Shown here: in pieces, positions 6,695-60,590 of the stretch
Layout of the letters: each line of letters starts with the position of its first letter
Numbering within the stretch: the stretch's first letter is position 1
Assembly: GCA_963815835.1 (NCBI GenBank)
Contig: CAWFIF010000001.1
Coordinates: forward strand, 772,807-836,806
Source of the DNA: an uncultured delta proteobacterium
GTDB taxonomy: Bacteria > Desulfobacterota > Binatia > Binatales > Binataceae
Reading direction: 5' to 3'
Length of the DNA stretch: 64,000 bases
Position numbers and translations under genes: made by a program
The notes under the pieces: model-generated
Databases searched by the model: none
Seen by the model: the letters and a program-made list of their open reading frames with translations, nothing else
Told to the model about the DNA's origin: nothing

Positions 6695-6697
6695 AAC

Positions 6698-9921: not shown

Positions 9922-10163
9922 CCGACGACGAGATCAAAACGCTCTATCTACGTGAGCTGCATAAGGTAGCACCCGAGGTCGAGTTAAGCGAAATCGATCC
10001 GGAGATCGATTTGCGCGAGCAGATCGATCTTGACTCGATGGACATCCTGAATCTCGCGATCGCGATCCACGAGGCGACAGGAGTTGATATTCCGGAAGCG
10101 GACTATCCGCAGATGGCGAGCTTGAACGGCTGCATGGCGTACCTGCATTCGCGCACCAGTTAG
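9918..10163 (+). CDS. acyl-carrier-protein-like phosphopantetheine-binding protein
   Basis: GTG start overlaps the E2 stop (GTGA). The 81-aa product contains the carrier-protein Ser motif IDLDSMDILNLAIAI. Confidence 0.55.
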   Translation: MTDDEIKTLYLRELHKVAPEVELSEIDPEIDLREQIDLDSMDILNLAIAIHEATGVDIPEADYPQMASLNGCMAYLHSRTS

Positions 10164-10254
10164 TGAAAACCTCCGCGTAGTCACCTGGTGCTGTTGTGTC
10201 TTAGGAACCCGGCACGACCTTCAATCGATGAGGCTTCGCTGCCTCGAGTCGAGA

Positions 10255-10310
10255 ACCTGGCGCAAGTGCTGACTTTCGCGGTCTTCCGGTGATGTGGCCG
10301 AAAGCGAGCT
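10255..10310 (+). other. relic duplicate of the 3' end of the gene at 4161-4550
   Basis: About 55 nt nearly identical to 4495-4550 (..gtgctgac.ttcgcgg.tc.tccggtgatgtggccgaaagcga..). No intact reading frame. Confidence 0.6.
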
Positions 10311-10364
10311 AAAGCGATAGCGCCCGACAAATCTGTCAGATGAGCACCGGCGAGTGAACTCGCC

Positions 10365-10601
10365 CTACCAACGCTGAAACCCACGTCGCGGAAGATTTCC
10401 GCCGTCGCAAATCGTATCGCACTTCCACGACGAGGCCTCGATGTTCCTTCCAGCCAGCTCCATGTACCACAAGAGCAGGATCGCGTCGGTCTGTTCGACG
10501 ACGAGATCGGGTGTGAAGCCCCAGACATGGCGCCGGTAACCGTCGAGCGCGCTATTGTAGTCGAGATTGGTGAGTGACCCAAAACCCGAAAAGTAGCCCA
10601 C
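10365..10601 (-). pseudogene. gene fragment abutting the IS3 left end (unknown family)
   Basis: 78-aa ORF starting 9 bp from the IS3 inverted repeat. No upstream continuation. Likely a truncated remnant. Confidence 0.3.
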
Positions 10602-10609
10602 CGATCAGT

Positions 10610-11937
10610 TGAGAGAGCGGCGACGAATTTGGTCCTCAGCAGAGCGATGAGGAGAGCACACGATGCCGAAGAAGGGTCAGAGCGGATGTTGCGCCAGGCG
10701 AGAGCGGGGACGAAGGTAAGCGCGATCTGTCGCGAACACGGAATCAGCGACGCGACTTTTCACAGTTGGAAGAAGAGGTAATGGAGCCTCGGCTTGAGCG
10801 AGTTGCGCGAACTGCGACAGTTGCGCGAAGAAACCCCCAAGCTCAAGCGGTTGGTGGCCGATCTTTCACTCGACCGGCACCTCCTGCAGGACATCGTGCA
10901 AAAGAGCTGTAAAGCTCCGGCAACGGCGCGCTCTGCGGCATTGGACCTAGGCGGCATACGCGCTCAGCACGCGGCGATCGTGAGGGCTGGTGAAAATCAC
11001 TCGAGTGACCGTGAGATAGCGGAGTCGGCGAGACCCGCAGCAGGCGCTACGGATGCGGCTTCGCGAACAGGCGGCGATCAGAGTGCGCTTGGGCTATCGG
11101 CGGCTGACAGTGTTGTTGAGACGCGAAGGATGGCGGGTCAACCCCAAGCGGATTTACCGCATGTTATACCGAGGACGGTCTGACGGTGCGGACCAAAACC
11201 CGCAACAAGATCGCGCGCTGCGCGCGGGTAGCGACACCCAAAGCAACCCGACCTAACGAACGCTGGAGTATGGACTTTATGCGCGCTCGGCTGCTCAATG
11301 GGCGCTGGTTTCGAGTGCTGACCATAGTCGATCAGTTTACCCGGGAGTGCCGCGCTTTGTCCGCTGACAACTCTCTCAACGGGAACCAGGTCGCGTTGGA
11401 ACTCTCGCAACTGGTAGCCGAGCACGGTGCACCGCGCTCGATCACTGCGGACAACGGCAGTGAATTTGTGAGTACAGCAATCGACACATGGGCTTACCAA
11501 CATGGTGTGCAACTGGACTTCATTTGTCCTAGCAAGCCGGTCGAGAACAGGTACATCGAGTCGTTCAAGGGGCGATTGCGCGACCAGTGCCTCAAGGTGG
11601 AGGTCTTTTTCGCGCTCGCCGACGTTCGCGAGAAGCTCCAGGTTGGCGCCAGGACAACAATCAGGTGCGGCCGCACAGTGCGCTAGCCGATCGGACGCCC
11701 GAGGAGTTTGCCAGAGCTTGGCAGGCTTTGAGCTCGGCTTCAGAGCGCACCGCGGGGCCAGCACACCACGCGCTGGCCGAAGCGGCGCTGGGCCCTGAAG
11801 CCGCGGATGCGAAACTTGTAGCGCTTTTCGGCTCGCCCTACCTCGAGATGAAGGGCGCGGCCGAAAAGCTGCTCATAGAAGCAGTCTAATCAGGTTTCCG
11901 CTCTGAACTGAGGAGCAGGATCGTTGCGTTTCTCTCG
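10610..11937 (+). mobile_element. IS3-family insertion sequence (IS407-like), degenerate
   Basis: OrfA-like N-terminus (MPKKGQ..RMLRQARAGTKVSAICREHGISDATFHSWKKR) plus leucine-zipper segment (ELRQLREETPKLKRLVADLSLDRHLLQDIV). OrfB rve/DDE integrase (WSMDFM.., ITADNGSEF, ..WRQDNNQVRPHSAL). Imperfect terminal IRs of about 37 bp start with TGAGAGAG. Frameshifts exceed the single programmed -1. Confidence 0.8.
10663..11889 (+). pseudogene. IS3-family transposase orfAB, multiply frameshifted
   Basis: Transposase homology is spread over at least four ORF fragments (10794-11183, 11053-11256, 11186-11686, 11587-11889) in different frames. Confidence 0.75.
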
Positions 11938-12320
11938 GGTCGCATGGTCGCGCCTCCATCATAGGAGGCGATGCTAACATGGCGTTTGATGTGCGTGGAT
12001 GGTTACTGTCAATTTTTCTCCCAAACCCAGTGCTAAGCGGCCGCCTTTCGCTGGCTCCCACGACAGCCAAAGCGGGCGATCTGCAAGCAGTCGATGCTGT
12101 CGGTCTTGATCCGCGCCAATTCTTCAACGCCAAAGCGATGTATGCGCTGCGGGTTGACCTTGCCCTCCGCAATTCCCCCACCTTGTCGTCCCCGACTGGC
12201 ATGTCGCGTGGACCAATACGCGACGACATCCGCGCGTCCTCGATGAGACGGGCGCAAACCGGGCTCGGAGAACGTCTACAATTGGCAGACTTCCTTGGTT
12301 TGACAGCACGCACGCCGTCG

Positions 12321-13527
12321 TCAATCCAAGCTCAGAACAAGGATCGTTGACGAGGCACTTTCATTGGCGGCGAGCATCGCGCGCAACTCGAGCGATTTCG
12401 CGCCTTGCTGGCGCGCTATTTTCGATCGCGCGCTCAAGAGACCGAAATCGTTTCCGGCATCATCCAGCTTGATTGCGAGATCGTTTTGAACCCGCAGAAT
12501 AGACGCGACTTGCCGCCACCGGCTCACCAACCGTTGCGACGATCTGTCTATGGCCGGACTTTGCAAGCTCCAGCGCGCCACGCATCGCGTCATCTCCGCG
12601 TCACGGGCCGACGAACCCGGTGAGGCTGCGACGGGCCGCGAACTGGAGCCTGGTCGCAGTGGGCTGAGTCCCCTGACTTCGTAAGCGTTTACGGGTTCGC
12701 TGACACCTTTCACCTTGGTCGGACCCAGCGGCTTGAGTTGAAAATATCCCGCCACGAATTTGCGCGTCTGCTCACTGATCGCGATCGAGCCGGTCGGCGC
12801 GAACGCCTGCATCCGCGCCGCCAGCCCGGTCGAATGACCAACCGGCGCGTATCCTGCCTGATCCGCGCCGGTGGCTATCGAACGCACCACCACCTCGTCC
12901 GTGTTGACGCCGACTCGGGCCTCGATGGGGGGAGGTTGCCCGCTTCGCGAGTCTTAAATGCATAGCGACGCATCTCTTCCTGCATCCGGAGAGCAGCATA
13001 GAGCGCGTTTGCGGATGGTCTTCATGGGCGATCGGCGCCCCAAACAGCGCGAAGATACCGTCACCGGTTAACTGGGCAGGGTAACCGCCATAACGCTGGA
13101 TCGCGTCGATCATGATCTTCAATGCAGGATCGACAATCGTGCGTGCCTCTTCGGGGTCCTTGATGTCGGCGAACAGCGCGGTGACCGTCTTGCGCTCGCC
13201 CTCGGGCGCCGCCGAGTCGTCAAATTCCGTCAGTGTGAGCTATGTTCGGGATGGCTCCGGTTGGGCGATCGCGAGACCGAGCGCAGCAGTTCATTGCCTA
13301 CAGAACTTGAATCCCGGCGGGTTCTGGAAGTGGCATTTCGGACAGATCAGTGCGAGCCGCCGGGTGCACTGACCGCAGAATTTCATTCCATCAGGATTGT
13401 CCGACCCGCATTTCGAGCAGCGCATTTTCCAGCCCCCCGGGTGCCGCAGGTCGCCTTTTCGACGAGGTTGCAGTCTTCTCAAGACGTGCCAATGTTGCCG
13501 ATCCCTTTTCCCGATAGAAATTAGCAC
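12321..13527 (-). pseudogene. adenylate/guanylate cyclase with N-terminal double zinc ribbon; frameshifted and 3'-truncated
   Basis: N-terminal CxxC zinc ribbons (MRCSKCGSDNPDGMKFCGQCTRRLALICPKCHFQNPPGFKFCRQ). Class III cyclase motifs lie in different frames (IQRYGGYPAQLTGDGIFALFGAPIAHEDHPQ; ALRMQEEMRRYA; VGHSTGLAARMQAFAPTGSIAISEQT..VKGVSEPVNAYEV). The gene runs into the IS3 element. Confidence 0.7.
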
Positions 13528-13912
13528 GAGTCACCGACCGCGTGTCTCGTTACGAGCCACGGCCCTTCGCCGCGCACCCGTTAGAGTCATCGCATTCCCG
13601 ATTGCAGCGCCACCCTCGTCAACTGCTACCGTGCGCCCGTCCACAGCGTGGTGCTCAGCGAGCCTGCGGCGATGGCCTTGCCTCACCGAGCCCTGTTTCA
13701 TTCGGCTAGCGTTGGTTCTTTCCGCGACAACAATGCTAGTTTTCAAATGTTCTCCGAAGAACATAATGTTCAATTTTCAAACTTGTCGTATAATTGCGTT
13801 GACCCAAGCAGCGGAACCGCCGAGACTACGGGTAGAATCGAATCCGGCCTGACGGAGGCCCTTGTGCTCGCCTTTTGGCTTTTCGGTTTGTCATTGGTAG
13901 TGGAGGTCTGAA

Positions 13913-14299
13913 ATGAAGATATTTCTCTTTACTATCCTGCTCGCGGCGCTGACCGCTAGCCTCGCCAGGGCCCAGTGCACGGGGTATTCAGCATGCGCTC
14001 ACAACAACAGTAAGGCGTGTGTTGACGCTCGCAACGCCTTCGCGAGACATCACAACGGGCTATATCCTGAACAGTGGTGTAACGAATGGTATCAAGGGCA
14101 GCAAGGACGCTGGAACCAGCGCGGTAATCACTGGCAATGGGAAGGCGCGGAAGGTGATCAGTGGTTTCAGGGACGGCGGGGACACTGGTTCAAGGAACGT
14201 GACGCCTGGCAATTCCGCGGCGATAAAGGCGATGAGTATCGGAACGGGCATAATGGCTGGCAATGGAGTGACGCCCGATCAAAGCACCATCGTGAGTGA
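13913..14299 (+). CDS. small secreted Trp/Gln/Gly-rich repeat protein
   Basis: 128 aa with signal peptide (MKIFLFTILLAALTASLARA). Mature part has degenerate W-x-W/F repeats (NHWQWEG, DQWFQG, GHWFKE, DAWQFRG, NGWQWSD). The AT-rich upstream region has lower GC than its surroundings. Confidence 0.5.
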   Translation: MKIFLFTILLAALTASLARAQCTGYSACAHNNSKACVDARNAFARHHNGLYPEQWCNEWYQGQQGRWNQRGNHWQWEGAEGDQWFQGRRGHWFKERDAWQFRGDKGDEYRNGHNGWQWSDARSKHHRE

Positions 14300-15365
14300 C
14301 GTCTGGTCCCGCTCAGTGTGACGTTTTCGAACGTCACCGTAACGGTGCTCACTAACACGCCTCCCAGGCAAATCTGCGATCTAGCGAGCAACTCACCCGC
14401 CCACCCTCTGATGGTTTCGCTTTTAACGTTAACGCGGGTCTAATCGCCAGTGAGCGGTCAGAAATGCGGACTACTTCGCAATGATCGCCGCCCTCGGAAA
14501 AAGGCGTAGTTGACTATTTAGTTCAAACCTCAGTCCGCCACGCGTCCCCGGAGCTGTTTGCTCGCGAGGCTCGCACCCTCAGCCATCGCCACCGTTATTG
14601 AGAATCCCGGCCTTCCCATAGGCAAACTCCCTGATCTCGTCGGGCTTGCAAATGTCTTGAGCCTGGATCGAAGTGGGCGAGTCACGAGGCCTCGGGAATT
14701 CCGCGCGACAAATAACCCGGCTGGCAGCTGAAAATTGTCGCCAATCAATTGCCGGACGCTCGCCGACGGGCGCCGCTTCCGCATCTTTGTGCGTGGTCAA
14801 CGACTTCAGCCGCGAGTGTCTTTACACAGAAGGATTATCGGGCAATGACCGATATCCTCGCTCCGGCTATAGCTAAAAGCCCCTATCGATCACGCCGTTT
14901 ATATGCTCAGGCGAGCTGGCCCGACATAGCCCGCAAAAATAAATGCCTTGTCAGGTCTGGTCTGCCCATAGCCAGTTTCATTTAGTCCAACCTGTAAGAT
15001 CACGAACCACCTCTTTGAGCGGAGGTGTTCTGGTAATCCAGAAATAAGCCGTCGAATCTGGATACAGGGTGCATCATCGCCGTGAGACAGATGTTCATCT
15101 TCCGATAAGTAGTGCTTCTTGTGCATTGCCGCTGCTCACGACGCGAACCCTCTTCGATTGCGCAATGGCACGACCGCCTCGGGTCAGTAATCGTTCAGAA
15201 AAAGTTGCATGAGCCTCTTGATCGCGGGTGGGGAGTCGCCTCCCCCAAAGAGTCTGCGCACTTTGAAGGTTCTCCGGGTCCAGTTCGCACTGACAGATAC
15301 AGTTCATCAGGGTTCAGTCGTCGTCGCTGAACAGGCTGGCCGAGTTTGTTCTCCACGTCCTCTCC

Positions 15366-15794
15366 CTAGTCGGACGACATGTCCTCTATGATGTGCATGT
15401 CGGGCTTCCGAGGACCCACATTCTCGCCTCGACTCAACAGTTCCACCCGAAGTCTGAGTGCATTTTCAGCGTCCTCTCGATGCGACGCGAATACGGACGT
15501 CTCCGCTGTGCGCACGATCCTGCCGTTCACGAACTCGACGAAAGGGCGCTCGACGTACGCAAATGCGGGATCATTTGTTTGCCACCTTCCAACGAGCGCA
15601 ACCTCCGGTCCCAACGGGAAGGTCAAGATCGTTCCGCGACCCGCTAGACCGTTTGCGAGCGGAAGCGGCGCGGATGCGTCTTGCCAGAACACTGGGTTGT
15701 CGCTCGTGACAAAGTGCATCCCGATCGGAGCGATCGCGTACCGCCATTTCATGCGGAACAGCAGCGGCGCAAACCCCTGCGCGATCTTGAGCAT
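15366..15794 (-). pseudogene. DUF4238-family protein, C-terminal portion only (N-terminus lost at IS5 insertion)
   Basis: 142 aa containing the DUF4238-like HFVTSDNPV motif. Family members are about twice this length. The ORF start sits 7 bp from the IS5-type inverted repeat. Confidence 0.45.
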
Positions 15795-15801
15795 GAACTC
15801 C

Positions 15802-16669
15802 CTAGGGAAGCTCTGGACAGGTTGATCGATTCAGGTACAAAGGAGTCAGTGGATCGGCGGATGTGGAGGTGTGGAGGTGGGAAATCAGCGGACGTTCGCA
15901 TCGGTGGCGTGGAATGCGAAGGGCAAGGTTACCCGGCGCGAGCGGTTCCTGGCCGAGATGGATGCGGTGATTCCGTGGCCGCGGCTGGTCAGGCTGATCG
16001 AACCGCACTACCCCAAAGCCGGACAAGGTCGCCAGCCGCTGGGGCTGGAGAAGATGCTGCGGATTTACTTTCTGCAGCAGTGGTTCAATCTGTCGGACCC
16101 GCAGGCCGAAGATGCGATCTACGACAGCGAGTCGATGCGCCGCTTTGCACGAGTCGAGCTGGGCGAGGAGACGGCCAGCTGCCCGATCTGCTGCATGGGC
16201 AGGAGCGCGAGCTGTTCGGCGATCAAGCGTACTGGAAGGAAGACGATCGAAGGTTTCTCGAGGCCTGGGGGTGCGCTACCGGATCAACCGGCGTCCTACC
16301 GCGCAGCGGCCGTTGAGCGAGCGCTGGCCGATGATCAACCGGGCGCGCTCGCGGACGCGGGCGCGCGGCGAACCGCCTTTCGCGTGGTCAAGCAACTGTG
16401 GGGTTTCGCCAAAGTGAGATACCGCGGTCTGGCCAAGAACCTGGCGCGAGCGCAGACCATGTTTGCCCTGGCTAATCTCTACCAGCTCCGCCGTGAGCTG
16501 CTCCCAGCAGGGGCGAGGTGCGTGTTGTGACCCCGATCGAGAGAACCGCAAATGGCTGCGACCACTTGCGAGGAACCAACAACCCGTCGCGCAGTTGCCT
16601 TTTCGCCGGATCCTAGTCACTTCCATATCAAACAGTCGTTGCAAAACGACCTGTGCAGAGCTTCCCTAG
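15802..16669 (+). mobile_element. IS5-family element, internally deleted derivative with CTAG target-site duplication
   Basis: 16-bp terminal IRs GGAAGCTCTGGACAGG (15806-15821) and its near-perfect inverted complement (16650-16665, one mismatch), each flanked by CTAG. Internal transposase fragments in several frames (MLRIYFLQQWFNLSDPQAEDAIYDSESMRRFA; LFGDQAYWKE; FRVVKQLWGFAKVRYRGLAKNLARAQTMFALANLYQLRR). Only about 0.86 kb where full-length IS5-family elements are about 1.2 kb. Confidence 0.8.
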
Positions 16670-17017
16670 GTGAACGGAATAAGAGGGATCGGAAATCTCG
16701 GGAAATTTCGATAACCCGATGAGTGCGTCGTTGCGGACCGCGGTCGGAAAAGCATTTGCGAGTTCGCTGTTGCTGTGAATCATCGTGACCAAGCCTATCG
16801 AACCTGATTTTATGGCGCTCGATCCTCCGCCGAATCTCGGCGTCGCGAAATTGAGGAGCCTAGCCTAAACCGCCTTCAGTTTCGGTCGCCACCTTTCTTT
16901 CGAAAATACCCCTTGATAGCTTCATTGGTAACGTTCAGGAAGCCTCGATTTCACGTGTGAGAGCCGAACGGGGCGGGAAGCGCTTCCGAGGCGGAGCGGC
17001 GTCGAGGAAAAGTCAAA

Positions 17018-17617
17018 ATGTCTCCAAAACAAATAGCCAAAGCGCTGGCGGCATTCGGCGTCATCGCCTTGGCCGCACTGGTGGGCGTGACCTACTACGT
17101 CGTCCACAATCGTGCGACTGCGCCGTTGATAACGGCGGTCGCCGGCTTGATTCCCGGGTCGCTCCTGCATGCCCACAACTTCCATTGGACGCAGATAAAG
17201 GACGGCGAGCAGCAGTGGGTGCTCACCGCACGCGATGCCAACTACTCGAACGACAAGACCTGGCTGCTCGACGACCCGGTTGTCACGCTCGTCTCGAAAG
17301 ATGGAAAGCCGGTCACCGTGAAGGCGCCCAAGGCCGTGCTCGACTTCGACGGCAACAAGGTCAAGCGCGCCAGGCTGAGTGGCGGAACACGCATCCGCTA
17401 CGGCGACTTCGTGCTTACCACCGATGTGGCTACCTTCCTCCCCGACGCTGACCAGGTCGACGCTCCAGGGTTCGTCACGATTGAGGGCGAGGGGATCAAG
17501 GTCACCGGGATCGGCTTGACCGGTCATACCAAAACCCGCCAGTTCGAGCTGCTCAAGCAAGTCAGCACCGACATCGCGCCGAAGCACAGCGGCCGTCCGG
17601 CTCCGAAGCAAGGCTGA
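17018..17617 (+). CDS. lptC: LPS export protein LptC
   Basis: 199 aa with N-terminal TM anchor then OstA-like beta-jellyroll. Lies directly upstream of lptA in the conserved rpoN locus. Confidence 0.7.
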   Translation: MSPKQIAKALAAFGVIALAALVGVTYYVVHNRATAPLITAVAGLIPGSLLHAHNFHWTQIKDGEQQWVLTARDANYSNDKTWLLDDPVVTLVSKDGKPVTVKAPKAVLDFDGNKVKRARLSGGTRIRYGDFVLTTDVATFLPDADQVDAPGFVTIEGEGIKVTGIGLTGHTKTRQFELLKQVSTDIAPKHSGRPAPKQG

Positions 17618-24421: not shown

Positions 24422-25771
24422 TCAGGTACTCGCAGCCCAGCTTCCGAGCGCGCCGTTGGGATTCATCGGGGAGCGATCCTGCCACGACATCGTGAGCCGC
24501 GCATTGCGATGAATCGGATGCAAGTGCCTTTCGATGATGATGTCGAGGATCCCCGGGATTTCGAAGATGGCGCGATTGTTGAGCGCGCCGACGCGCTCGC
24601 GCAATTGCGCCAGCCGCTGCGGATCGAGCATCGGAACAATCGCCGTCGCAATCTCGGCAAACGAATGGAGCACTACGCCGACGCGATTGCTGACGATCCA
24701 ATCCGTATTGTAACGCTCCTGCACCATTGTCCATGAGTTGCGTTCGACGATCACGGGCAACTGCATCACCAGCGCCTCGCTGATACTGCCCGGCCCAGGT
24801 TTCCCAACGAAGTAGTCGGCAAGATTCATGAAGTAGGGAATCTCGCGTGTGAATCCCTCGATATGAAACGGGTACGGGAGCTCCAGCGCCGAGAGCTGCT
24901 CGCGCAGGCGCTGATTATGCCCGCACACGAAGATTAGTTGCGTCTTCAACCCTGCCGTGGCGACCCGCCTCGCGATCGTGAGCATCTTGCGCGAGCCGTG
25001 TCCGCCGAACATCACGAGGCCGGTGGGCAAATCGGGACGCAGCCCGAGGCGCGTGCGCTCCTGCGCACGATCGACGTGAAGGGGAAGGTAGAACTCGGGA
25101 CGCACGATCATCCCCGAGGTGCGAAAGATTCGTTCGCGCGGATGTCCCATCGCAAGCGCCTGCGCCACCGCGCGCTCCGTCGCACAAGCGAAGTATTGCT
25201 CCTGCCGCTCGATCCAGAAATGGGACGGATAGTCAGCGAGGTCGGTGAGGATGGTCAGCATCGGGGTCGGCACGCGATCGAGTTCATGATCGCTGGCGTG
25301 CAGGCCGTCAAAGATCGCGCGATTGAAGTTGGGAATCAGCGAGACCACCAAATCAGGAGGTGCGCCTTTCCAAAAGCGCGCGAGCAAAGCCGCTGAGGGG
25401 CGATGCATTTGGCGGATCAGCATCTGCACGCCACGCAGCATCGCGCCCGTGCCGAGCGTCATTCCGTAGCGAAGCATAAACCGATTGTAGGCGTCCTCGA
25501 CCCGGACTCGCGCAACTTTTCTGACGATGTCGATCGGCTCGAGCACCTCGCGCAGATTCACCATCCTGACGTCCCACGCACGGCGGTCCCGCCCGAGCAT
25601 CGATTGCAGCGCGGTTGCGCTCGCGCGATGTCCCCCGCCCGCGTCGAAGAAAATCAGATCAACCTTCCTCGGCGCCGATTGCCTATGCGCGTGCGCGAGG
25701 TCGCTATACGCTTCACCACTTCGATCCCATTCGGGCGCAAACAGTTGCCTGACCGGATAAAAACGGCTCAT
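24422..25771 (-). CDS. GT28-family glycosyltransferase, MGDG-synthase-like (diacylglycerol glycosyltransferase)
   Basis: 449 aa with MGDG synthase-like N-terminal domain and GT28 C-terminal domain (VMFGGHGS...LIFVCGHN..ADYFVGKPGPGSISEAL). Confidence 0.65.
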   Translation of the reverse strand: MSRFYPVRQLFAPEWDRSGEAYSDLAHAHRQSAPRKVDLIFFDAGGGHRASATALQSMLGRDRRAWDVRMVNLREVLEPIDIVRKVARVRVEDAYNRFMLRYGMTLGTGAMLRGVQMLIRQMHRPSAALLARFWKGAPPDLVVSLIPNFNRAIFDGLHASDHELDRVPTPMLTILTDLADYPSHFWIERQEQYFACATERAVAQALAMGHPRERIFRTSGMIVRPEFYLPLHVDRAQERTRLGLRPDLPTGLVMFGGHGSRKMLTIARRVATAGLKTQLIFVCGHNQRLREQLSALELPYPFHIEGFTREIPYFMNLADYFVGKPGPGSISEALVMQLPVIVERNSWTMVQERYNTDWIVSNRVGVVLHSFAEIATAIVPMLDPQRLAQLRERVGALNNRAIFEIPGILDIIIERHLHPIHRNARLTMSWQDRSPMNPNGALGSWAAST

Positions 25772-33336: not shown

Positions 33337-34740
33337 ATGCCGATTGATTTGCGGCTCGACCCGCACGAGATATCCCTCCTCAACGACCTCTACGAATTTA
33401 CCGTGGCGGCGGCCTTCTTCGAGCGCGGGATGAATGGCGCCGCCTCCTTCGAGGTCATGGTGCGGCGCTTTCCGCCGAGCCGTGGATACATGATTGCGGC
33501 CGGGTTGGAGCGCGTGCTTCAAATCCTCGAGGATTTCCACTTCGATGCGACGGCGATTGACCATCTTGAGTCGCTGCATCTCTTCAAGCCCGAATTTCTA
33601 CATCACCTGGCGCAGTTGCGTTTCACCGGCTCGGTGCGCGCGGTCGCGGATGGCAGCATCTTCTTTCCCGGCGAACCGGTCATGGAAGTACGCGGACCGC
33701 TCATCGAAACGCAGATCCTCGAGCCGTTGATCCTGAACCAGCTGGGATTCGCATCGCTTACGGCGACCAAGGCGGCGCGATGTTTCAGCGTCGCCTCCGG
33801 ACGGCGGCTGGTCGAGTTCGGCTTGCGGCGGGGGCAGGGAGCCGATGCGACTTTGATCGCCGCACACTCCAGCTATCTGGCGGGGTTCAGCGGAACCTCG
33901 AACGTGCTCGCCGGCAAACGCTATGGGATGCCGGTGTTTGGCACCATGAGCCACAGCTTCATAATGGCGCATGATGGCGAGCGCCAGGCGTTCGAGGATT
34001 TCGCCCGAACTTTTCCCAAACTGAACACGATGCTGGTCGATACTTACGACACGGCGCAGGGCGTCAGGAACGTCGCGGAACTCGCGCAGCGGCTCACCAA
34101 GGAAGAGATTAAAATACAGGCGGTGAGATTGGACAGCGGCGACCTCTATCAGTTGAGCCGCCAGGCGCGCGCGATTCTCGATCAGCACGGACTGACTGAC
34201 ATCGCGATCTTTGCCAGCGGCAATCTCGACGAATATCGAATCGCGGACCTGATTCGCGCGGGCGCGCCGATCGACGCGTTCGGTGTGGGAACCGCGCTGA
34301 CCGTCAGCGACGATGCTCCCAGCGCCGACTACACCTACAAGCTCTCCGACTATCTCGGCCGTCCGCGGCTCAAAACGTCCGCGGGCAAGACCACGGTGCC
34401 GGGGCGCAAGCAGATCTTCCGGGGAATCGACGCCGGCAATCACTTTTCGCAGGATCTGGTTGGGCTCATGGATGAAACGCCGAGCAGCGTGACGCGCGAA
34501 TTCAAGCCCGCAGTTTCCAAAATCACGCCGATGCTGCAGACGGTGTTCGAGAATGGCCGGCGGGCGATCGCGGCGCCCACGCTGGATGAATCGCGCGATC
34601 ATTTCATGACCGAGTTCGCGATGCTCGGCGCAAAGCAGCGCTCACTCGCAAATCCCGCGGTGTATGCTGTCCGCCTTACCGCCGCGCTGAACGCGATGAC
34701 GATTAGCGCGAAGCTTCGGGCGGAGCAGCTGCAAGACTGA
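33337..34740 (+). CDS. pncB: nicotinate phosphoribosyltransferase
   Basis: NAPRTase N-terminal and catalytic domain motifs (LLNDLYEFTVAAAF; GTMSHSFIMAHD; GVGTAL). The tabulated ORF starts at 33289, overlapping the Lon stop. Confidence 0.8.
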   Translation: MPIDLRLDPHEISLLNDLYEFTVAAAFFERGMNGAASFEVMVRRFPPSRGYMIAAGLERVLQILEDFHFDATAIDHLESLHLFKPEFLHHLAQLRFTGSVRAVADGSIFFPGEPVMEVRGPLIETQILEPLILNQLGFASLTATKAARCFSVASGRRLVEFGLRRGQGADATLIAAHSSYLAGFSGTSNVLAGKRYGMPVFGTMSHSFIMAHDGERQAFEDFARTFPKLNTMLVDTYDTAQGVRNVAELAQRLTKEEIKIQAVRLDSGDLYQLSRQARAILDQHGLTDIAIFASGNLDEYRIADLIRAGAPIDAFGVGTALTVSDDAPSADYTYKLSDYLGRPRLKTSAGKTTVPGRKQIFRGIDAGNHFSQDLVGLMDETPSSVTREFKPAVSKITPMLQTVFENGRRAIAAPTLDESRDHFMTEFAMLGAKQRSLANPAVYAVRLTAALNAMTISAKLRAEQLQD

Positions 34741-36889
34741 GCGAAGGTTGCGATGACACGCGCTCGGCAACCTGCCGCAGGTGCGACGGGTCGAATTCCA
34801 TCACCATCAACTGGATCGATTCGCCACTGGTTGAGCCGAAGATTTGCGGCGCGAACAGATAACGGACAAACGTCCGCGCTCCATTCGGCGGCCAAAGCCG
34901 CGGATATGGAAAGTAGATTTTCTCGGCATCGGCGCCATAGCTATCGATGATCGGTTTGAGACCCGAGGCGGAGCCGGCGACCCCAATTCCGATTTTGCCT
35001 TCGAGCTGGCCCGACCAGATGTCGTTATAGCCGTCGGGCTTGGGATCGAATGTCCATCCCGCGGGGAACAGGCCGGCGGCTTCGAGCGTCGGGACGTTGA
35101 GCTTAGCGGCATCGCCGCCGTTCTCGAGATAGCGCTCGGTCGCCGCGATCAGCGTCTCGAAGCGAGCGCGTTCGGCACGTTGCTCGAGGTCGATCGCGTT
35201 CATTCCCCGATACGCCTTAAGCGCGTCGGGCGGGATGCGATAGAAAAGAACGCCCCCGACTTCCCGCGGCGTGACCTCGAGACTCGATAGCAACTGCTTC
35301 CATTGCGGCACGCGCGAATCGCCCGCGTCGAGCACGATCGCGGTGATGCCGAGGTTGGCGACGAAGGCCTTGAGCTGGAGATCCGGCTGCGGAAGGTCGG
35401 GCGAGCCGACGAACACGTTGACCACCGGCCAGCGCCGAATCTCGATCGGCTGCAGACCGGTCAGTCCCGATGCCATCCGAAAATTCATTCCGCTCTCGGC
35501 CAGCCACATCATCGACATCCCCTGTTGGCCAAACGGCAGCGGCAGCACGATATCATCGCCGGCCAGCAAACGATTCGAACTTCCGTCACGGAAAAATGCC
35601 GGCAGCGGCGCCCGGCGCGCCCAGAACGACGCGGCAGGGTTCGGCATCAGCATGATGAGCGTCGCCAGCGTGCCGATCACTTTTTCCGCTGGGCCGGTGA
35701 GCGGATCGCAAAGCCACATCGTGAAAATGACGGCCAGCGCAAGGAAGGCATACATGACCAGCCGCCCCGGGACGGCGCTTTTGATCAGCGGCAGCTTCTC
35801 GACCACCAGCCACGGCATCGGCAGTACCTGATGTCCCGCGATCTGAAGATATGGTCCGAGGGCGAGGATGCAGCTCACCGCGACGGTTGCCAGGAGAAGT
35901 TTCGGCAGCAACTCGCCGCGATGGCGGCGGCTCCAGACCGCCGCGATCGCGAGCAGCGGAATTCCGAGGCACGCGCCCTGTTCGTAAATGTCGCCGGGAA
36001 AGGTCGCGGAGACTTGTGTCAGCGTCCCGAGGTTGCCGATCGCATTGGCTGGAGTAGGAACGATGAAGTTCAGCAAGTCGGTGGAGAACCTCGCGGACGG
36101 CCATAGCGGCCGGCTCGGGAATCCGTAGGCGAAATAGAAATAGATATATGGACTCATCAGCAGCGCGGTGAACGCATATGCCGCCGCGATTTCGGGGATC
36201 AATCGCGCGATGCGCCGGCGATCCTCTCCTGACGCGATTCGCAACCCGATGAGTAGCGTCAGCGCGGCGAGGAACGTCATCACCGCGAACGGTTCGAGCA
36301 CCAGCAGGAACTGCATCGAAAGGACGAGGGTCAGCAGAACCACGAATCGGTTGCGGCTTAGATTTTCCCGCACCCGCCGAACGGCGAGGTATACCGCGAG
36401 CGGAACCGGGAAAATCAGGAGCTGATTCAGATGGCTGAGAATTTGTCCAAGCACAAAGGGTGAGAAGCCGAACAGAAATCCACCCAGCAGCGCCGCGGCA
36501 AAGGCGCCGCTCAATCTCCGACAGAGCAGAAACGCCGTTAAGGCGGCCAGCGGCGGCAGCATCACAATGATCAGGTTGAAAGTCGCGAGCGGCCCGAGCG
36601 TGTTAGTCAGCGGCGTTGCGATGATACCCAACAGCGGGAGGCACGTGACCCAGGCGAGGTTTATGCCTTGCGGCGCCCAAATCAACTTGGTCAGAAATGG
36701 ATGCGCATGATGATGCAGTACATAGGGCCACCATGCGAGCGACCACATATACAATGATGGGTCGGTGTCGCGGCCGACGTAGTAATCGAACAGATGTCCG
36801 GGAAGCATCCGCGCGAAAAATATCAGTGACAGGAATAGGTATACGGCAAACGCGAACAGACTATTCGCAAGTGTGTGACGCGATTGCAT
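34703..36889 (-). CDS. large polytopic membrane protein with C-terminal extracytoplasmic domain (putative GT-C-type glycosyltransferase); paralogue 3 of a trio
   Basis: 728 aa, about 10-12 predicted TM helices in the first 420 aa, then a soluble domain of about 300 aa. ATG lies 3 nt after the stop of the upstream paralogue. Confidence 0.5.
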   Translation of the reverse strand: MQSRHTLANSLFAFAVYLFLSLIFFARMLPGHLFDYYVGRDTDPSLYMWSLAWWPYVLHHHAHPFLTKLIWAPQGINLAWVTCLPLLGIIATPLTNTLGPLATFNLIIVMLPPLAALTAFLLCRRLSGAFAAALLGGFLFGFSPFVLGQILSHLNQLLIFPVPLAVYLAVRRVRENLSRNRFVVLLTLVLSMQFLLVLEPFAVMTFLAALTLLIGLRIASGEDRRRIARLIPEIAAAYAFTALLMSPYIYFYFAYGFPSRPLWPSARFSTDLLNFIVPTPANAIGNLGTLTQVSATFPGDIYEQGACLGIPLLAIAAVWSRRHRGELLPKLLLATVAVSCILALGPYLQIAGHQVLPMPWLVVEKLPLIKSAVPGRLVMYAFLALAVIFTMWLCDPLTGPAEKVIGTLATLIMLMPNPAASFWARRAPLPAFFRDGSSNRLLAGDDIVLPLPFGQQGMSMMWLAESGMNFRMASGLTGLQPIEIRRWPVVNVFVGSPDLPQPDLQLKAFVANLGITAIVLDAGDSRVPQWKQLLSSLEVTPREVGGVLFYRIPPDALKAYRGMNAIDLEQRAERARFETLIAATERYLENGGDAAKLNVPTLEAAGLFPAGWTFDPKPDGYNDIWSGQLEGKIGIGVAGSASGLKPIIDSYGADAEKIYFPYPRLWPPNGARTFVRYLFAPQIFGSTSGESIQLMVMEFDPSHLRQVAERVSSQPSLSLAAAPPEASR

Positions 36890-36892
36890 ACG

Positions 36893-38434
36893 CTAGTACT
36901 TGCGCGTTCTACCCGCGGCGATGCGTCTCAGCCGATTGGTATTTTCGATTACATACTCAGGCGGAGCGATAAGTCCGGCTGCGAATTGTGGATAGGACCA
37001 ATCCAGCGCTCGCTCAGGATGCTTGTCTACATCAACTACGGTGCTCCATTGCTGCGTAGCTGATGAGAATGCACCCCGGCCGTTGATCGCTACAGACAGC
37101 GCAAGCAGCATCAGCGCGGTCACCATCTCGCCCCGGCTTAAGACCGACAAGCGTCCAACCGACGCGGCGGCGCATCCGAGGATCGCCAGCAGCGCGAACC
37201 ACGGGAGTGCGTCCATCATCAGTCGCGCGCCATAGCAATAGCCTCCCCACCAACAAGGATAAGCGCCGATAGCGACGAGGTTCGTTGTCGCCGTTGCTAT
37301 CGAAAGGAGTGCGAGACGGCGCAACGGAAGATTCTTCCAATAGCGAACGATCAGGTAGACAACAAAGCCGAGCACGGGAACATAGATGAACAGTCCCCGC
37401 GAGGGGCCGACGAGGTTCCCGTAGAGACCGACCCAGAAAGCATGCGAACCGAACCGGGATCGGTAGTATCCAGGAATCAGCTCGCCATAAGTCATCCACC
37501 AATACGCGACGAATCCAGCGAGCCATGATGCGCCGGTCGCGGCGAACGCGACGAACCTTAGGCGGTGGTAGACTAAAAGATAGGCGCTGACGCAGGCGAT
37601 TGTGATCGCGCCTGTGGGGCGCACGAAGTACATCCAGGAAAGAATGGTGGCGAGAAGTACCGGACGCACCGAGCGGTGTTCTACCTCGGCGGACAAAATA
37701 TCGTATACCGCCAAGCCGCCGAGAAAGATGAACCATGTATGCGACCACAGTGAGCGCGTCCCCGCGCTCCATACTTGCGTGCCGAGTGCGAAACCGAGCG
37801 CAATGATGGCGCTTGGGGCCGCGCTGAGCATCAGCATCGCGGTTCTAAACACGACGCACGCCAGAAGAGCCATCAGCAACGCCGCTAGTGTTTTCTGAAT
37901 CGTCACTTCGCCCACCCGGTTGTATTCGCGATCCGGTGTGGCGGCCGTGATTCCGATAGCGTTCATAAGGGCCACGAACGGAACTGACAAAATCGAACTT
38001 CCGTTCGGATAGCGATAGACAATGTTGCCGTTTACGTTTCCCAGCTCGTAGCTATACGGATTTTGTGGATCGTCGATTGGTGGCGCGCTCGTTTTGAGTA
38101 CCGCAATCGGCTCAGCGAACCTATAGGCGTTAAGATGGGTGGAGTGACTATGCAGGATGCTTTCGCTCAGAAGAGTAGAGTACAAAGAATCACAAATGTC
38201 GATGACAGGAGACACTGAAAAAAGTAGGTACGTAAGAGAGAACAACACCACTGTCAGAAACAAACGCGTCCGATATTCCAAGCTCGCGTTTACCCGCCAT
38301 TGCATCAACACGGGAACAGATGCATTCGCCTTGCAGCGAAGCGCCCTGGTGAGACCAATTCCGAGTTGCCTCAACCCCATAAACCTCATGGAGATAGATG
38401 CCGTTGGAAAATCTCGAAGTATTGACCTTTCCAT
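36893..38434 (-). CDS. polytopic membrane protein, paralogue 2 of trio (putative GT-C-type glycosyltransferase)
   Basis: 513 aa, multi-TM, Asp-rich first extracytoplasmic loop (PPIDDPQNPY). Lower GC than flanking DNA. Confidence 0.5.
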   Translation of the reverse strand: MERSILRDFPTASISMRFMGLRQLGIGLTRALRCKANASVPVLMQWRVNASLEYRTRLFLTVVLFSLTYLLFSVSPVIDICDSLYSTLLSESILHSHSTHLNAYRFAEPIAVLKTSAPPIDDPQNPYSYELGNVNGNIVYRYPNGSSILSVPFVALMNAIGITAATPDREYNRVGEVTIQKTLAALLMALLACVVFRTAMLMLSAAPSAIIALGFALGTQVWSAGTRSLWSHTWFIFLGGLAVYDILSAEVEHRSVRPVLLATILSWMYFVRPTGAITIACVSAYLLVYHRLRFVAFAATGASWLAGFVAYWWMTYGELIPGYYRSRFGSHAFWVGLYGNLVGPSRGLFIYVPVLGFVVYLIVRYWKNLPLRRLALLSIATATTNLVAIGAYPCWWGGYCYGARLMMDALPWFALLAILGCAAASVGRLSVLSRGEMVTALMLLALSVAINGRGAFSSATQQWSTVVDVDKHPERALDWSYPQFAAGLIAPPEYVIENTNRLRRIAAGRTRKY

Positions 38435-39915
38435 ACCGGCGAGAAGTCTCCGAGAGAATGGTTGAACTCAGGCTCACTGGCTATGCCGGTGCATGTACTC
38501 TTAGTCAATGGGACTACGACCGTGTTGGCGACCGCTAGGTCTCTTAGCTTGCGGCTTATATCCCCTTGGGTCATTAGGCCCTTCATAAGGAACAGGCTTA
38601 CGGGTTGTTGAAATCCCGGAAACAACAATTCGGCCGCGCCCATCTCGTCGAGGATTGTGACTTTGTGATCTCCGGCAATCGCCAAAACCGTCTCCCATTC
38701 AGCGCGCTCGTCGCGGCGAGCCCACAACCCTTTCGTGCTGGGAGTGGGTGTAGTTGTTGCCCACCATCGTAACGTCCAGTAGCCAAGGGCGGTCCATGAA
38801 AAGAAGGCGAGTACGGAAAGAGCCAGGCCGAGGCGTCGATGGTAGGGCCCGAAGTCTACAGCTACTGCACATCCGATAACGAGAAGATAAGAGTAATAAA
38901 TCCACGAAAACTGATTTCCGAAGAAGGCGAAAAGAAAGCACAAATGAAGAACCGCGCAGGTTATCACCAGTCCTGCTCTGCGGGTCGGTAATTCTCCACT
39001 CACAATAGCGGCGATGATTGCAGAAGTTGCGCATCCGTATAGAAAGAGATTAGCCGCGATCCAGAAGCCCGAATGAGTGATAAAGTAGAAGGGCCAGGCC
39101 TTCGCATCCCAAAGGCCGCGTCCATCGGCAAAGAGTCCAAAATTAAGTGCACGATAGGCGGCCGCTCCTTCGATCGGGACTGCGGTTCGCAGAAGCACGC
39201 TTGCTCCAAACTCGATTGACAGCACCATGGCAACAGTGAGGAACGTTACCGCCGCTGGAGCGAAGGCCAACAACCAACGTCGAGGAGAGAATGATTCTTT
39301 GGTCAGATCTCGGACTATGAGAAGAATGAGCAATAGAGAGTAAGCGTAGGCCATGCTCGGCTTCGCGAAAACGGTGGCGCTTGTGATAGCCAGAGCGATT
39401 GTTTTCGCTCCGGATGCCTGCTGCGCCAGCGCTGATACTATGAGGGCAGCCTCCATCGCGTGAGCCAGGTTGGGATAGGTCGGTTGAAACGCGAACCCCA
39501 AGCCGATGGTAGTAAATATCAGCCCAAGGCCACCGATCCGTATTTGCACAAATGTTTTTGCCAACGCCCAGGCGCAGACAAGGTTGAAGGAAATCATGGC
39601 GAATTGATACGACCATGGAGTGGGTCCCAGCGCGGCAAACCAGACGCGGCCGAAGAGGGCCGGAAGCAAGCCGTAGTGATAGCCGAAATCAATCCCGGCA
39701 CGATAACCGTGCGATATCAGATATTGGAGCGTCAGATTCGAGCCGTGATCGCAGAAGGCGAATCCATCGAACCGCATACTCTCCGGGAGCCGTGCCAGAT
39801 TTAGCGCTAACAACTCAATCGAAAACAGAGCGAGCAGCATCGCAAAGCTCGGCCTGAACTCGCTACTCTGTTTGGAATCCCACCGGTCTATCGCGATGGA
39901 GCTATACGCGGCCAT
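38386..39915 (-). CDS. polytopic membrane protein, paralogue 1 of trio (putative GT-C-type glycosyltransferase)
   Basis: 509 aa, multi-TM. 3' end overlaps the start region of paralogue 2. Lower GC. Confidence 0.5.
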   Translation of the reverse strand: MAAYSSIAIDRWDSKQSSEFRPSFAMLLALFSIELLALNLARLPESMRFDGFAFCDHGSNLTLQYLISHGYRAGIDFGYHYGLLPALFGRVWFAALGPTPWSYQFAMISFNLVCAWALAKTFVQIRIGGLGLIFTTIGLGFAFQPTYPNLAHAMEAALIVSALAQQASGAKTIALAITSATVFAKPSMAYAYSLLLILLIVRDLTKESFSPRRWLLAFAPAAVTFLTVAMVLSIEFGASVLLRTAVPIEGAAAYRALNFGLFADGRGLWDAKAWPFYFITHSGFWIAANLFLYGCATSAIIAAIVSGELPTRRAGLVITCAVLHLCFLFAFFGNQFSWIYYSYLLVIGCAVAVDFGPYHRRLGLALSVLAFFSWTALGYWTLRWWATTTPTPSTKGLWARRDERAEWETVLAIAGDHKVTILDEMGAAELLFPGFQQPVSLFLMKGLMTQGDISRKLRDLAVANTVVVPLTKSTCTGIASEPEFNHSLGDFSPVWKGQYFEIFQRHLSP

Positions 39916-40162
39916 CAGAAGTTTGCGGGTTCTTCTCCCATAGCGCTCGATACCGGCCCGGTGCTGACGACGTGGCCGTGCTCCCCCGAACTGATGATTC
40001 CATCCCCCATCCCCGGACCCTCAGTCTGAAGCTATCGGCGTCCGATTGGCGAATCAACCCGTCTGTCTGTACGGCGCAAATACCGTCCATTTGTTGGATG
40101 TGGGTTGACAAATGCAGGCCGCGCGGGTTACGCGGCTGTTATTATCGAAGAGGTCGCCAACC

Positions 40163-58233: not shown

Positions 58234-58336
58234 GTGTGCACGAAGTCGGAGCAGCTGCTCCGGGCCCAAAACCGGTGGCGCCTTTTTTGTCAAGTAGTGC
58301 TTGTTTTTGCTTGCTACCACACTAGAATCTCTCCCG

Positions 58337-59575
58337 ATGACAAAATCCAACTTTCGAATTCTGCGGCCATTCCTCACGGTGGCCGCGCTGATAGTGTCCG
58401 TCATGTTGTCGGGATGTTCGGGCGGAGGGCCTGGAAAGGCCGCGCAAAACTATGTTGACAACCTGAAGTTCTTCAACTATCCGGCCTGCTACCAGGCCCT
58501 GTCGCATCAGGATCAGATCGATCGGACGATCGATCAGTTTCTGACCGACATACCGCTTGCTCCGGATGTCAACCGTGACTGGTTCAAGAGCGTCCTCGGC
58601 GCGCAGGAATTCACCCTCGGCGACGTCAAGCAGGAGGGCGACAGCAAGGGAGTAGTGACGGTCAAGGTGACTCGTCCAGATCTCGCTTTGTGGGAACGCA
58701 CCATCGACGCGACCACTGATCCGAATGCGGGCCCGGATCAGGCCGCGCAGAAGACTCTCACTGAGAAGAGCTATCCGAAGGTTACCTACGACGACGACAT
58801 CGTCGCCGTAAAGGAAGGCAGCGATTGGAAAGTCCTCTACAATTATCCTCAAAAGGAAGCTGTCGAGAAGAAACACAAAGAAGGAATCGACGCCTACCAC
58901 AAGCACGACTATGACAAGGCGATCGCCGCCTACCAGGCCGCGATCCAGGAGTTGGATAAGGAAGAGGCAACCGGCAACGCCGGCATAAAATTCCGCCTTC
59001 AGAGGGAACTCGACGATATCAACAACATCAAGGCGCAGATTCCCGAGGGTCAGGCCTACGTCCCGAAGCTCGCCCTCAGCGACGTCGATATGAAGATGGC
59101 GGCTTCGCGAGTGCCGGGAATCTTCGGCAAGATCACCAACAATGGCGACAAGGCGATCGATGAAATCGTCGTCACGGTCACCTATTCCGAGGGCAAGGGC
59201 AAGAAGAAAAAGCAGGTCTTTTCGGAAGAGCACTCGATCATCGTGACGCCCATCGAGTTCATCAACTTCTCGCGTCCGGTTCTGCCCTTCGTGCCCGGCG
59301 AGACGCGCAGCTTCGGCTTCAAGCTGACCGCGCCGGCCGATGTCCAGAACAAGGCGACCCCCGATCTCGAAGTCAGCGGCGTCGTCTTCACCCAGTCCAA
59401 GGCGCCATTGCCGAAGCCGCAAGCGCCGCCGTCGCCGACTCCCGCGGCCTCTCCTGGAGCGCCTGCGGCTGCGGGTGCGCCGCCCGCTGGAGGGCCTGCC
59501 GCTGCGGCGCCTCCGCCGCCACCACCACCTCCGCCGCCACCGCCTCCTCCACCGCCTCCTCCTCCGGCACATTGA
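58337..59575 (+). CDS. lipoprotein with extreme C-terminal poly-proline tail
   Basis: Signal peptide plus lipobox (VMLSGCSG). TPR-like internal segment. The last 45 residues are Ala/Pro-rich, ending in 26 consecutive Pro. Confidence 0.6.
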   Translation: MTKSNFRILRPFLTVAALIVSVMLSGCSGGGPGKAAQNYVDNLKFFNYPACYQALSHQDQIDRTIDQFLTDIPLAPDVNRDWFKSVLGAQEFTLGDVKQEGDSKGVVTVKVTRPDLALWERTIDATTDPNAGPDQAAQKTLTEKSYPKVTYDDDIVAVKEGSDWKVLYNYPQKEAVEKKHKEGIDAYHKHDYDKAIAAYQAAIQELDKEEATGNAGIKFRLQRELDDINNIKAQIPEGQAYVPKLALSDVDMKMAASRVPGIFGKITNNGDKAIDEIVVTVTYSEGKGKKKKQVFSEEHSIIVTPIEFINFSRPVLPFVPGETRSFGFKLTAPADVQNKATPDLEVSGVVFTQSKAPLPKPQAPPSPTPAASPGAPAAAGAPPAGGPAAAAPPPPPPPPPPPPPPPPPPPAH

Positions 59576-59677: not shown

Positions 59678-60590
59678 TTGACCAAGTCAGTCACCATCGC
59701 GATCCCGACCCATAATCGCGCGCGCACGTTGAGTGAGACGCTCGACAGCCTCAAGGTGATCGCGATTCCCGAGGATACCGCGGTCGAATGCGTCGTCATC
59801 GATAACGCCTCGACCGACGATACTCCTCGCGTCGTCGAGGCAGCCGCGAATTCATCGCCGCCGTTTCCGATTCGCAGGGTCCTCGAGCCGCGGCAGGGCT
59901 CGAGCTTCGCACGTAATCGCGCGGTTGATGAGGCTCGCGGCGATTTCATTTTCTTCCTCGATGATGACGCGACCGCCGATCGCGAGTGGCTGCGCGCGAT
60001 GCTGTCAGCCCTGGAGACCCGGGGCCTCGACGCCGCATGCGGGATGGTGTTGCCGCGCTGGAGTACGCCTCCGCCGCCATGGCTGGGTCCGCGGCTATGG
60101 GTGAAGCTCGCCGTGCATGATCGCGCGGCGCTCGAGTCGGCGTCCGCGAACGAGGTCGAGGCGCTGCAAAACTATTTCAGCGCCAACGTGGGATTTCGGC
60201 GCTCAGCGTTCGAACGCTTCGGGCGTTTTCGCGAGGACCTCGGCGTCGTCGGCAAAAATCCGATGTCGGGAGAAGACACCGAACTGTTCGCGCGCATCAT
60301 TGGTAACGGCGGCAAAATGGGATTCGTTCCAGGCGCCATCGTGCATCATCTGATTGGCACCGGAGCGGATGACCCCTGAATATTTGCGGCGCAAGAGTTT
60401 CGCGTATGGATTCGGGAGTGCGATTGCCAGCGGCAGGAGTCACAACCGGCTCGACAAGCTGGCGAAAAATCTGATCCGAATGTTCGGCGCCGCGCTGCGA
60501 GGCGATCGCGAGGGCGTGTTGTACCATCAACTCGAATGCGCGAATTTTTTTGGCTACTGGCGCGGCCGCCTCGCGCATCGAAGAAGCTGA
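59678..60590 (+). CDS. family 2 glycosyltransferase; single-nucleotide frameshift near 60350-60360
   Basis: N-terminal GT2 motifs (VTIAIPTHNRA; VIDNASTDDT; FLDDDA). The C-terminus continues in another frame (..VHHLI / PERMTPEYLRRKSFAYGFG). Confidence 0.7.

Follow-up and report, generated by a model that had tools for sequence, protein, structure and literature searches.

A conserved three-gene locus of Binataceae that probably encodes inner-membrane GT-C glycosyltransferases

Described GT-C systems and the Binataceae locus

Antigenic type, phage sensitivity, and envelope integrity are decided by GT-C enzymes, which build or decorate the cell surface. Here we analyse three adjacent genes, A, B, and C, in a 64,000-nucleotide (nt) stretch of DNA (the window) from an uncultured delta proteobacterium of the family Binataceae (assembly GCA_963815835.1, contig CAWFIF010000001.1, positions 772,807 to 836,806). 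We read A-B-C as an operon of three inner-membrane GT-C glycosyltransferases that modify an acceptor in the cell envelope, and give this reading a probability of about 0.7.

The closest described enzymes are those of the ArnT/PMT_2 type (GT83 and GT39-like; PF13231 and PF02366). They are polytopic inner-membrane proteins and have a long first periplasmic loop with a catalytic Asp, an outline that A, B, and C share with a candidate Asp at this place. An ArnC-like glycosyltransferase of family GT2 makes the polyprenyl-phosphate sugar that they use as donor, and distant relatives of C are found in clusters with ArnT- and ArnC-like genes. A and C both match ArnT structurally, and PMT_2 is touched by relatives of B. 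However, A, B, and C stay under the Pfam and NCBIfam thresholds, the identity to ArnT is 11-12%, and no arnC-like or flippase gene is adjacent. Another related group is STT3/PglB/AglB (GT66), which gives the best Foldseek match of C and strong matches of A, and which combines a multi-helix membrane core with a periplasmic or luminal C-terminal domain. Unlike these enzymes, A, B, and C do not have the WWDxG motif. The TM-scores of A and C are 0.35-0.5 with 11 helices rather than 13, and no sequence relation could be detected between their C-terminal domains and the oligosaccharyltransferase ones.

The mycobacterial enzymes EmbA/B/C, AftA-D, and PimE resemble the locus in organization. They are encoded by side-by-side GT-C genes, act sequentially or as heteromers on one envelope polymer, and represent a lineage-specific GT-C expansion; AftA and EmbC are also among the structural matches. 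This is an analogy only, since they belong to another phylum and have no sequence similarity to A, B, or C, and no AcpM-like or DPA-pathway genes are seen around the array. LA_3751/LA_3752 of Leptospira (NF047440) is the sole curated model matched by B, and 49 of 60 B-family members match it. With 23.9 bits, where the cut-off is 200, B is nevertheless only distantly related to this family and falls outside it, and the Leptospira family is itself called 'putative'. In the three-component systems for O-antigens and other glycans, which consist of a GtrA flippase, a GtrB/ArnC-like GT2, and a GT-C enzyme, a GT-C enzyme adds a side-chain sugar in the periplasm, and the loci are strain-variable and of low GC content. 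Such systems are the subject of PMC11127046. The A-B-C locus differs from them in having GT-C components only, and three of these, while possible partners are seen only at distant C-family loci elsewhere.

Fold, family links, and conserved residues

The three genes are located as follows.

38386-39915, minus strand: gene A, an open reading frame (ORF) of 509 amino acids (aa)
36893-38389, minus strand: gene B, 498 aa if started at the likelier Met16; as the longest ORF, up to 38434, it has 513 aa
34703-36889, minus strand: gene C, an ORF of 728 aa

The initial annotation, made from the DNA letters alone, had listed three consecutive minus-strand ORFs of 509, 513, and 728 aa, and all of them are found at these positions. 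Public protein collections list more than 100 significant homologues for each, so that A, B, and C are genuine, conserved genes rather than chance ORFs. Homologues that carry names are hypothetical proteins, and their organisms are almost all Candidatus Binataceae or Binatus. Gene A has 145 homologues, and the named ones are from Binataceae or Binatus. One of them bears the automatic JGI label 'MFS family permease' (MFS, major facilitator superfamily).

A Pfam scan of A, B, and C gave no match at E<=1, and all three missed the gathering thresholds of PMT_2 (PF13231) and PMT (PF02366). A and C were also unmatched in an NCBIfam scan that included NF047440, and neither Pfam nor NCBIfam was found to have a model for the family of gene A. 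PDB sequences searched with profiles of the family alignments, including a 147-sequence B profile, gave chance matches only. Comparison of A and C by hhalign with PMT_2 families from the loci compared here gave nothing, in a weak test where a real PMT_2 pair reached only 63%. Precomputed annotations assign PF19830 (DUF6311) to most homologues of C, including one that is 98% identical. In the Pfam copy searched here, C and 67 members of its family were all without a PF19830 match, perhaps because the model has been retired, changed, or rebuilt.

AlphaFold2 gave confident models of A (predicted local distance difference test score, pLDDT, 91.8; predicted TM-score, pTM, 0.91) and of C (pLDDT 92.2, pTM 0.91). 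When these models were compared with the PDB by Foldseek, 18 of the 19 top matches of A were GT-C proteins with a probability of about 1.00, among them ALG12 (7e-5), STT3, ArnT, ALG9, PglB, EmbC, and PIG-U. For C, the top 27 matches were all GT-C proteins (27/27, probability again about 1.00), including AglB (2e-6), DPY19, yeast and human STT3, ArnT, PglB, AftA, and Pmt4. Transporters appeared in these searches at a probability of at most 0.15, and the TM-scores of MFS and other transporters were at most 0.2. Since the models are confident and the significant PDB matches are exclusively GT-C, A and C are, as modelled, proteins of the GT-C fold that form distant branches of the superfamily outside any characterised family. 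The same fold evidence largely rules out a transporter reading of A and C.

B is connected to the superfamily through profiles. It matches NF047440 ('LA_3751/LA_3752 family putative glycosyltransferase') with 23.9 bits and an E-value of 1.6e-5, and the matches of the B-family members to this model cover about 250 positions (best 1.7e-16). Among 89 diverse representatives of the B family, 25 match PMT_2 (best 3.9e-7; most of the scores lie close to the 26.1-bit cut-off or under it) and five match Glyco_transf_22. One relative of B has tetratricopeptide (TPR) repeats. An exhaustive profile search with the B family reached 8702 clusters at 50% identity with E<=1e-3. Aligned by hhalign with a local PMT_2 family, B gave P=3.6e-4 and a probability of 37% in a weak set-up; two bona fide PMT_2 families, used as a yardstick, gave only 7e-5 and 63%, and the test has little power. 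From the profile links of its relatives, B is probably a GT-C member. By these profiles it would belong, as an outlying member, to a very large family that is uncharacterised and has PMT_2 and LA_3751/LA_3752 among its relations. The proposal of an array of GT-C transferases for lipid-linked sugars is upheld for A and C by AlphaFold2 and Foldseek, and for B only by profile links.

The three genes had further been taken for paralogues. Among A, B, and C, the best pairwise BLASTP E-value is 0.11. Alignment of the three family alignments by hhalign, in local and global mode, gave probabilities below 1%, and a 150-sequence B profile gave a probability of at most 8% against the A and C families. 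A, B, and C are not detectably similar by sequence or by profile, an outcome that the initial annotation had itself named as counting against its proposal, and paralogy is unsupported at the sequence level. A common fold of array members is demonstrated for A and C only.

The model of A has 11 transmembrane (TM) helices, a first external loop at residues 42-99, and a C-terminal alpha/beta domain of about 120 aa. The model of C also has 11 TM helices, with a first external loop at 26-99 and a C-terminal domain of about 310 aa. Hydropathy gives B about 11-12 hydrophobic segments and a first external loop at 85-144 (60 aa), followed by a tail of only 57 aa; other B-family members are extended to 600-900 aa. 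An architecture of about 10-12 TM helices plus a soluble C-terminal domain, claimed earlier for each protein, is therefore right for A and C and wrong for B. In short loops the counts of Lys plus Arg are 13 inside and 1 outside for A, and 16 inside and 3 outside for C. Because of this positive-inside distribution, the N-terminus of A and C is predicted to be cytoplasmic, and the first loop and the C-terminal domain periplasmic.

The first external loops are not rich in Asp, as had been stated, and have about three Asp each. Instead, each family has one invariant or nearly invariant Asp just after TM1. In A this residue is D56, invariant in 118 sequences, and in C it is D43, present in at least 90% of sequences. 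In B it is D82 (D67 in the 498-aa numbering), which is invariant in 60 sequences and kept in at least 90% of 147. Each family also conserves Arg, Glu, and His in external loops. From position only, we infer that D56, D82, and D43 correspond to the catalytic Asp of known GT-C enzymes. The WWDxG motif is absent from the sequences of A, B, and C, where only WWA (A), WWG (B), and WWP (C) are found.

Operon structure, strain variation, and genomic setting

The boundaries of the genes are as follows.

38386-38389, minus strand: A-B junction, ATGA, a 4-nt overlap that contains both the Met16 start codon of B and the TGA stop of A
36887-36895, minus strand: B-C junction, TAG stop, 3-nt spacer cgt, and ATG of C
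39916-40111: divergent intergenic region of 196 nt between A and the enoyl-CoA hydratase (ECH) gene, the presumed promoter region of the operon
34703-34740: convergent 3'-end overlap of 38 nt between C and the NAPRTase gene, with the same overlap in related genomes

A and B had been described as overlapping by 49 nt. The ATG of Met16 at 38389-38387 shares ATGA with the stop of A, one homologue of B starts exactly at Met16, and the 498-aa B is the gene call recorded on a public 3.4-Mb contig. For these reasons the 513-aa B with its 49-nt overlap is most likely an artefact of choosing the longest ORF, and the true junction is a 4-nt overlap. The conserved core of the B family begins only at about residue 55. 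The 3-nt spacer between the stop of B and the start of C was correctly reported and reads TAG cgt ATG. The 4-nt A-B overlap also exists in the related loci L090 and L092, L093 has 1-nt overlaps, and in related genomes most neighbouring array genes are joined by comparable overlaps or very short gaps. An ATGA stop/start overlap is a classic layout for translational coupling. Judged from spacing, it is plausible that A-B-C is one operon with coupled translation. The sole consensus sigma-70-like match is weak and lies at 40169-40141 on the minus strand, within the start of the ECH gene.

A public call for the C protein is 701 aa (P0513); a start at Met28 (36808 instead of 36889), if this is the one it uses, would delete the conserved TM1. 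Family conservation and the high model confidence of residues 11-30 both favour the 728-aa start.

Related arrays at the same site are listed below, where C' is a second family-C copy and A' a second family-A copy. Neighbours were taken from precomputed gene tables.

L001: C' (frameshifted)-A-B-C
L002: C'-A-A'-C
L003: C'-A-C
L090: A-B-C
L092: A-C
L093: A-A'-C

The 24 A genes present in 89 non-redundant loci all point in the same direction as a C gene, to which 18 are directly adjacent, while six are one gene away. The loci found with A as the query (L092 and L093) have A-C or A-A'-C beside the NAPRTase gene. A and C form a fixed pair, and the position between them is exchangeable, being absent or occupied by a second A or by B. 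A-(A or B)-C is a conserved operon beside the NAPRTase gene in Binataceae and is ancestral at this site.

L090 is a very close relative with the same A-B-C array, and two parts of the array differ from it.

36851-38200, minus strand: replaced segment, the body of B, with gapless 54-69% DNA identity to L090 positions 6590-7935
34900-36100, minus strand: mosaic divergence in C, from sliding-window identity

Per 150-nt block, L090 is 94-100% identical to the window, mostly 97-100%. This high identity covers the M15, YkuD, and ECH genes as well as the whole of A, and it extends into B as far as about 38200. Where C begins, 99% is reached again, and the changes near 38200 and 36850 are abrupt. The nearest B alleles differ as well, B of the window being closest to P0121-P0123 and B of L090 to P0131. 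This pattern indicates that the body of B was replaced by recombination (allele replacement) between strains. Allele replacement by recombination is familiar at surface-polysaccharide loci. In C, the membrane core is 97-100% identical, while identity is 69% at 36100-35951 (about aa 263-313, the external loop between TM7 and TM8) and 73-84% at 35500-34900 (about aa 463-663, in the periplasmic domain). In L091, which is 99% identical, the contig ends within B and A lies on a separate 2.9-kb contig. This break is consistent with a strain polymorphism that disrupts assembly. When JGI metagenomes were scanned for exact copies of the A/B junction, no further B alleles came up. The exchangeable and recombined middle gene suggests that the locus sets a strain-variable feature of a surface glycan.

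Base composition also distinguishes the array. As the initial annotation had pointed out, the total GC content of A (0.54) and B (0.56) is lower than that of the flanks (0.59-0.62). GC content at third codon positions (GC3) is 0.59 in A and 0.645 in B, compared with 0.74 in C and 0.70-0.79 in 11 neighbouring genes. Amino-acid content does not explain the low GC of A and B because the difference sits at third codon positions. Horizontal acquisition had been proposed on this basis. A single import of A and B as the sole cause is rejected, as the operon is ancestral at the site and array genes of low GC3 recur in five of the six other genomes compared. The array is better described by recurrent recombination or allele replacement, which is directly visible for B, than by a one-off import.

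In Binataceae, family C has undergone a strong expansion. At least 575 copies were confirmed by tblastn in GTDB species representatives, and nearly all are labelled Binataceae, Binatus, or 'delta proteobacterium' metagenome-assembled genomes. Members are often solo or in C-only arrays, the largest of which pack five copies into about 13 kb. Many Binataceae genomes carry 2-5 copies in tandem (L014, L018, L036, L048, L058, L060, L066, L067, and L079). Frameshifted copies are found in L001, L031, L043, L060, and L076, a sign that family-C genes are gained and lost rapidly. As far as sampled, families A and C are apparently restricted to Binataceae.

More distant C-family members (41-42% identity) exist in a cluster with the order PMT_2 - GT2 - methyltransferase - PMT/ArnT-like - methyltransferase - C, which is conserved in at least 10 species (e.g., L083 1821-10109 and L087 1910-10199). 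The GT2 of these clusters matches PgfS (7e-83) and ArnC (6e-53) over its full length. Enzymes of the PgfS/ArnC type are polyprenyl-phosphate sugar synthases that supply GT-C enzymes. The two methyltransferases might, speculatively, indicate a methylated sugar. Another arrangement is found at the NAPRTase site of L085 (8001-12775), where a family-C gene is followed by an unannotated gene of 388 aa and a gene for a DltB-like MBOAT acyltransferase. This set would be a different envelope modification at the same chromosomal position. Both the GT2/ArnT-like and the MBOAT contexts of C relatives support an envelope modification that depends on lipid-linked sugars.

The window itself consists of Binataceae housekeeping DNA. 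Located upstream, on the NAPRTase side of the array, are genes for LptC/LptA, RpoN, RapZ, a DedA-type protein, S-adenosylhomocysteine hydrolase, S-adenosylmethionine synthetase, Usp, Lon, and NAPRTase. Downstream are those for enoyl-CoA hydratase, a YkuD transpeptidase, an M15 peptidase, Grx, BolA, a thioredoxin-like protein, and thiolase. About 40 larger ORFs of the window were scanned for donor genes, and the following were noted.

24422-25771, minus strand: diglucosyl-diacylglycerol-synthase-like gene, 449 aa, no Pfam match, NCBIfam 5e-23, about 9 kb from the array
59678-60379, plus strand: generic GT2, 233 aa, directly downstream of the next ORF listed
58301-59575, plus strand: ORF of 424 aa whose N-terminus is lipoprotein-like and whose C-terminal part has about 26 prolines in a row
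1999-3021, minus strand: UbiA prenyltransferase, 32 kb from the array

The product of 24422-25771 is possibly a glycolipid synthase, and some UbiA enzymes supply polyprenyl-phosphate pentose donors to GT-C enzymes. The window had been said to contain no sugar-nucleotide or polyprenyl-sugar synthase. Among the ORFs scanned none is adjacent to the array, but the GT2, the diglucosyl-diacylglycerol-synthase-like gene, and the UbiA gene lie at a distance within the window. Elsewhere, positions 9900-17600 contain no ORF of 230 aa or more; a DUF772 transposase fragment is present there at 15871-16530, and the stretch is perhaps a degraded mobile-element region. An Rfam scan of the whole window found no RNA family.

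Proposed role and competing readings

By analogy with ArnT, PglB/STT3, PMT, DPY19, and Emb/Aft, each of A, B, and C would draw its sugar from a polyprenyl-phosphate-linked donor on the periplasmic side of the inner membrane. D56, D82, and D43 would activate or position the acceptor, and the conserved Arg/Lys would hold the donor phosphate. The sugar would go to a periplasmic or surface acceptor, which may be an envelope glycan, a lipid, or a protein. The donor synthase (an ArnC/PgfS-like GT2) and the flippase would be encoded elsewhere in the genome. The three enzymes may act together or in sequence, with the middle enzyme as the strain-variable determinant. In this scheme we infer the GT-C fold of B, catalysis by Asp, the type of donor, the three-way co-operation, and the variation of a surface glycan.

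Several points weigh against a glycosyltransferase operon. The likeness of A and C to solved GT-C structures is remote (E 1e-4 to 1e-6, TM-score 0.35-0.54, identity 10-16%). The 23.9 bits of B are far under the NF047440 cut-off of 200, B has no Pfam match, and its assignment to GT-C, likely as it is, was made by profiles rather than by a structure model. Position within the protein is what equates D43, D56, and D82 with the known catalytic Asp, and gene spacing is what makes a single transcript with coupled translation plausible. No donor synthase or flippase adjoins the array among the ORFs scanned. A literature search on DUF6311, LA_3751/LA_3752, and Binatia with glycosyltransferase found nothing relevant on the three families. 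Some proteins of the GT-C fold, PIG-U for one, are not known as transferases.

The nature of the acceptor leads to another reading that is compatible with GT-C, in which A, B, and C are protein glycosyltransferases (PMT-, TMTC-, STT3-, or DPY19-like) acting on envelope or secreted proteins. The top structural matches of A and C do include protein-modifying enzymes (AglB/STT3/PglB, DPY19, and Pmt4), relatives of B match PMT_2, and the one with TPR repeats shares these with TMTC-type enzymes. Furthermore, the GT2 of the distant C clusters is closest to PgfS, which by its NCBIfam name is part of a streptococcal protein-glycosylation system. However, ArnT, AftA, Emb, and ALG9/12, which are lipid or glycan enzymes, match equally well, the WWDxG motif is missing from all three proteins, and no acceptor protein is evident within the operon. 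We regard a protein acceptor as possible but rather doubtful. It is distinctly unlikely that at least one of A, B, and C is a non-catalytic subunit of the GT-C fold, a scaffold or substrate presenter in a heteromeric complex, comparable to PIG-U of GPI transamidase or to the inactive half of some heterodimers, with one catalytic member only. A never occurs without C (24 A genes, 89 loci), the overlapping gene starts suggest stoichiometric co-production, and PIG-U is among the structural matches of A. Against this, each family keeps its invariant or nearly invariant Asp together with Arg, Glu, and His, as in active GT-C enzymes, and C often exists alone or in C-only arrays.

Transporters, or polymerases and ligases of another fold (MFS, Wzy, WaaL, or SEDS), would agree with the JGI permease label of one A homologue and with the lack of Pfam matches for A, B, and C. 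This explanation is highly improbable, as MFS and other transporters stay at the low Foldseek probabilities and TM-scores given above, and no Wzy, WaaL, or SEDS protein is among the matches listed for the models of A and C. In architecture, too, A and C correspond to GT-C enzymes, as the first external loop is long, an Asp is conserved, and the C-terminal domain is predicted to be periplasmic. A more elaborate version of the GT-C reading is that A and C are obligate partners of a Binataceae-specific heteromeric GT-C machine, in which B or the second A, as an exchangeable middle subunit, sets a linkage specific to the strain and the expansion of family C builds an envelope glycopolymer. We consider this version unlikely. 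If true, the A-C machine would follow an Emb/Aft-like logic and make a lineage-specific envelope glycopolymer, and it would represent two or three new CAZy GT-C families.

An operon of three GT-C glycosyltransferases that modify the envelope would belong to a well-known type of system and involves no new principle. What is new is the GT-C assignment of two apparently lineage-restricted families (A and C) and of the very large family B, together with the A-C pairing, the expansion of family C, and the allele swap in B. The gain is the annotation of these genes, a set of candidate catalytic residues, and a conserved operon, which may provide a locus for surface-glycan variation in an abundant uncultured soil lineage.

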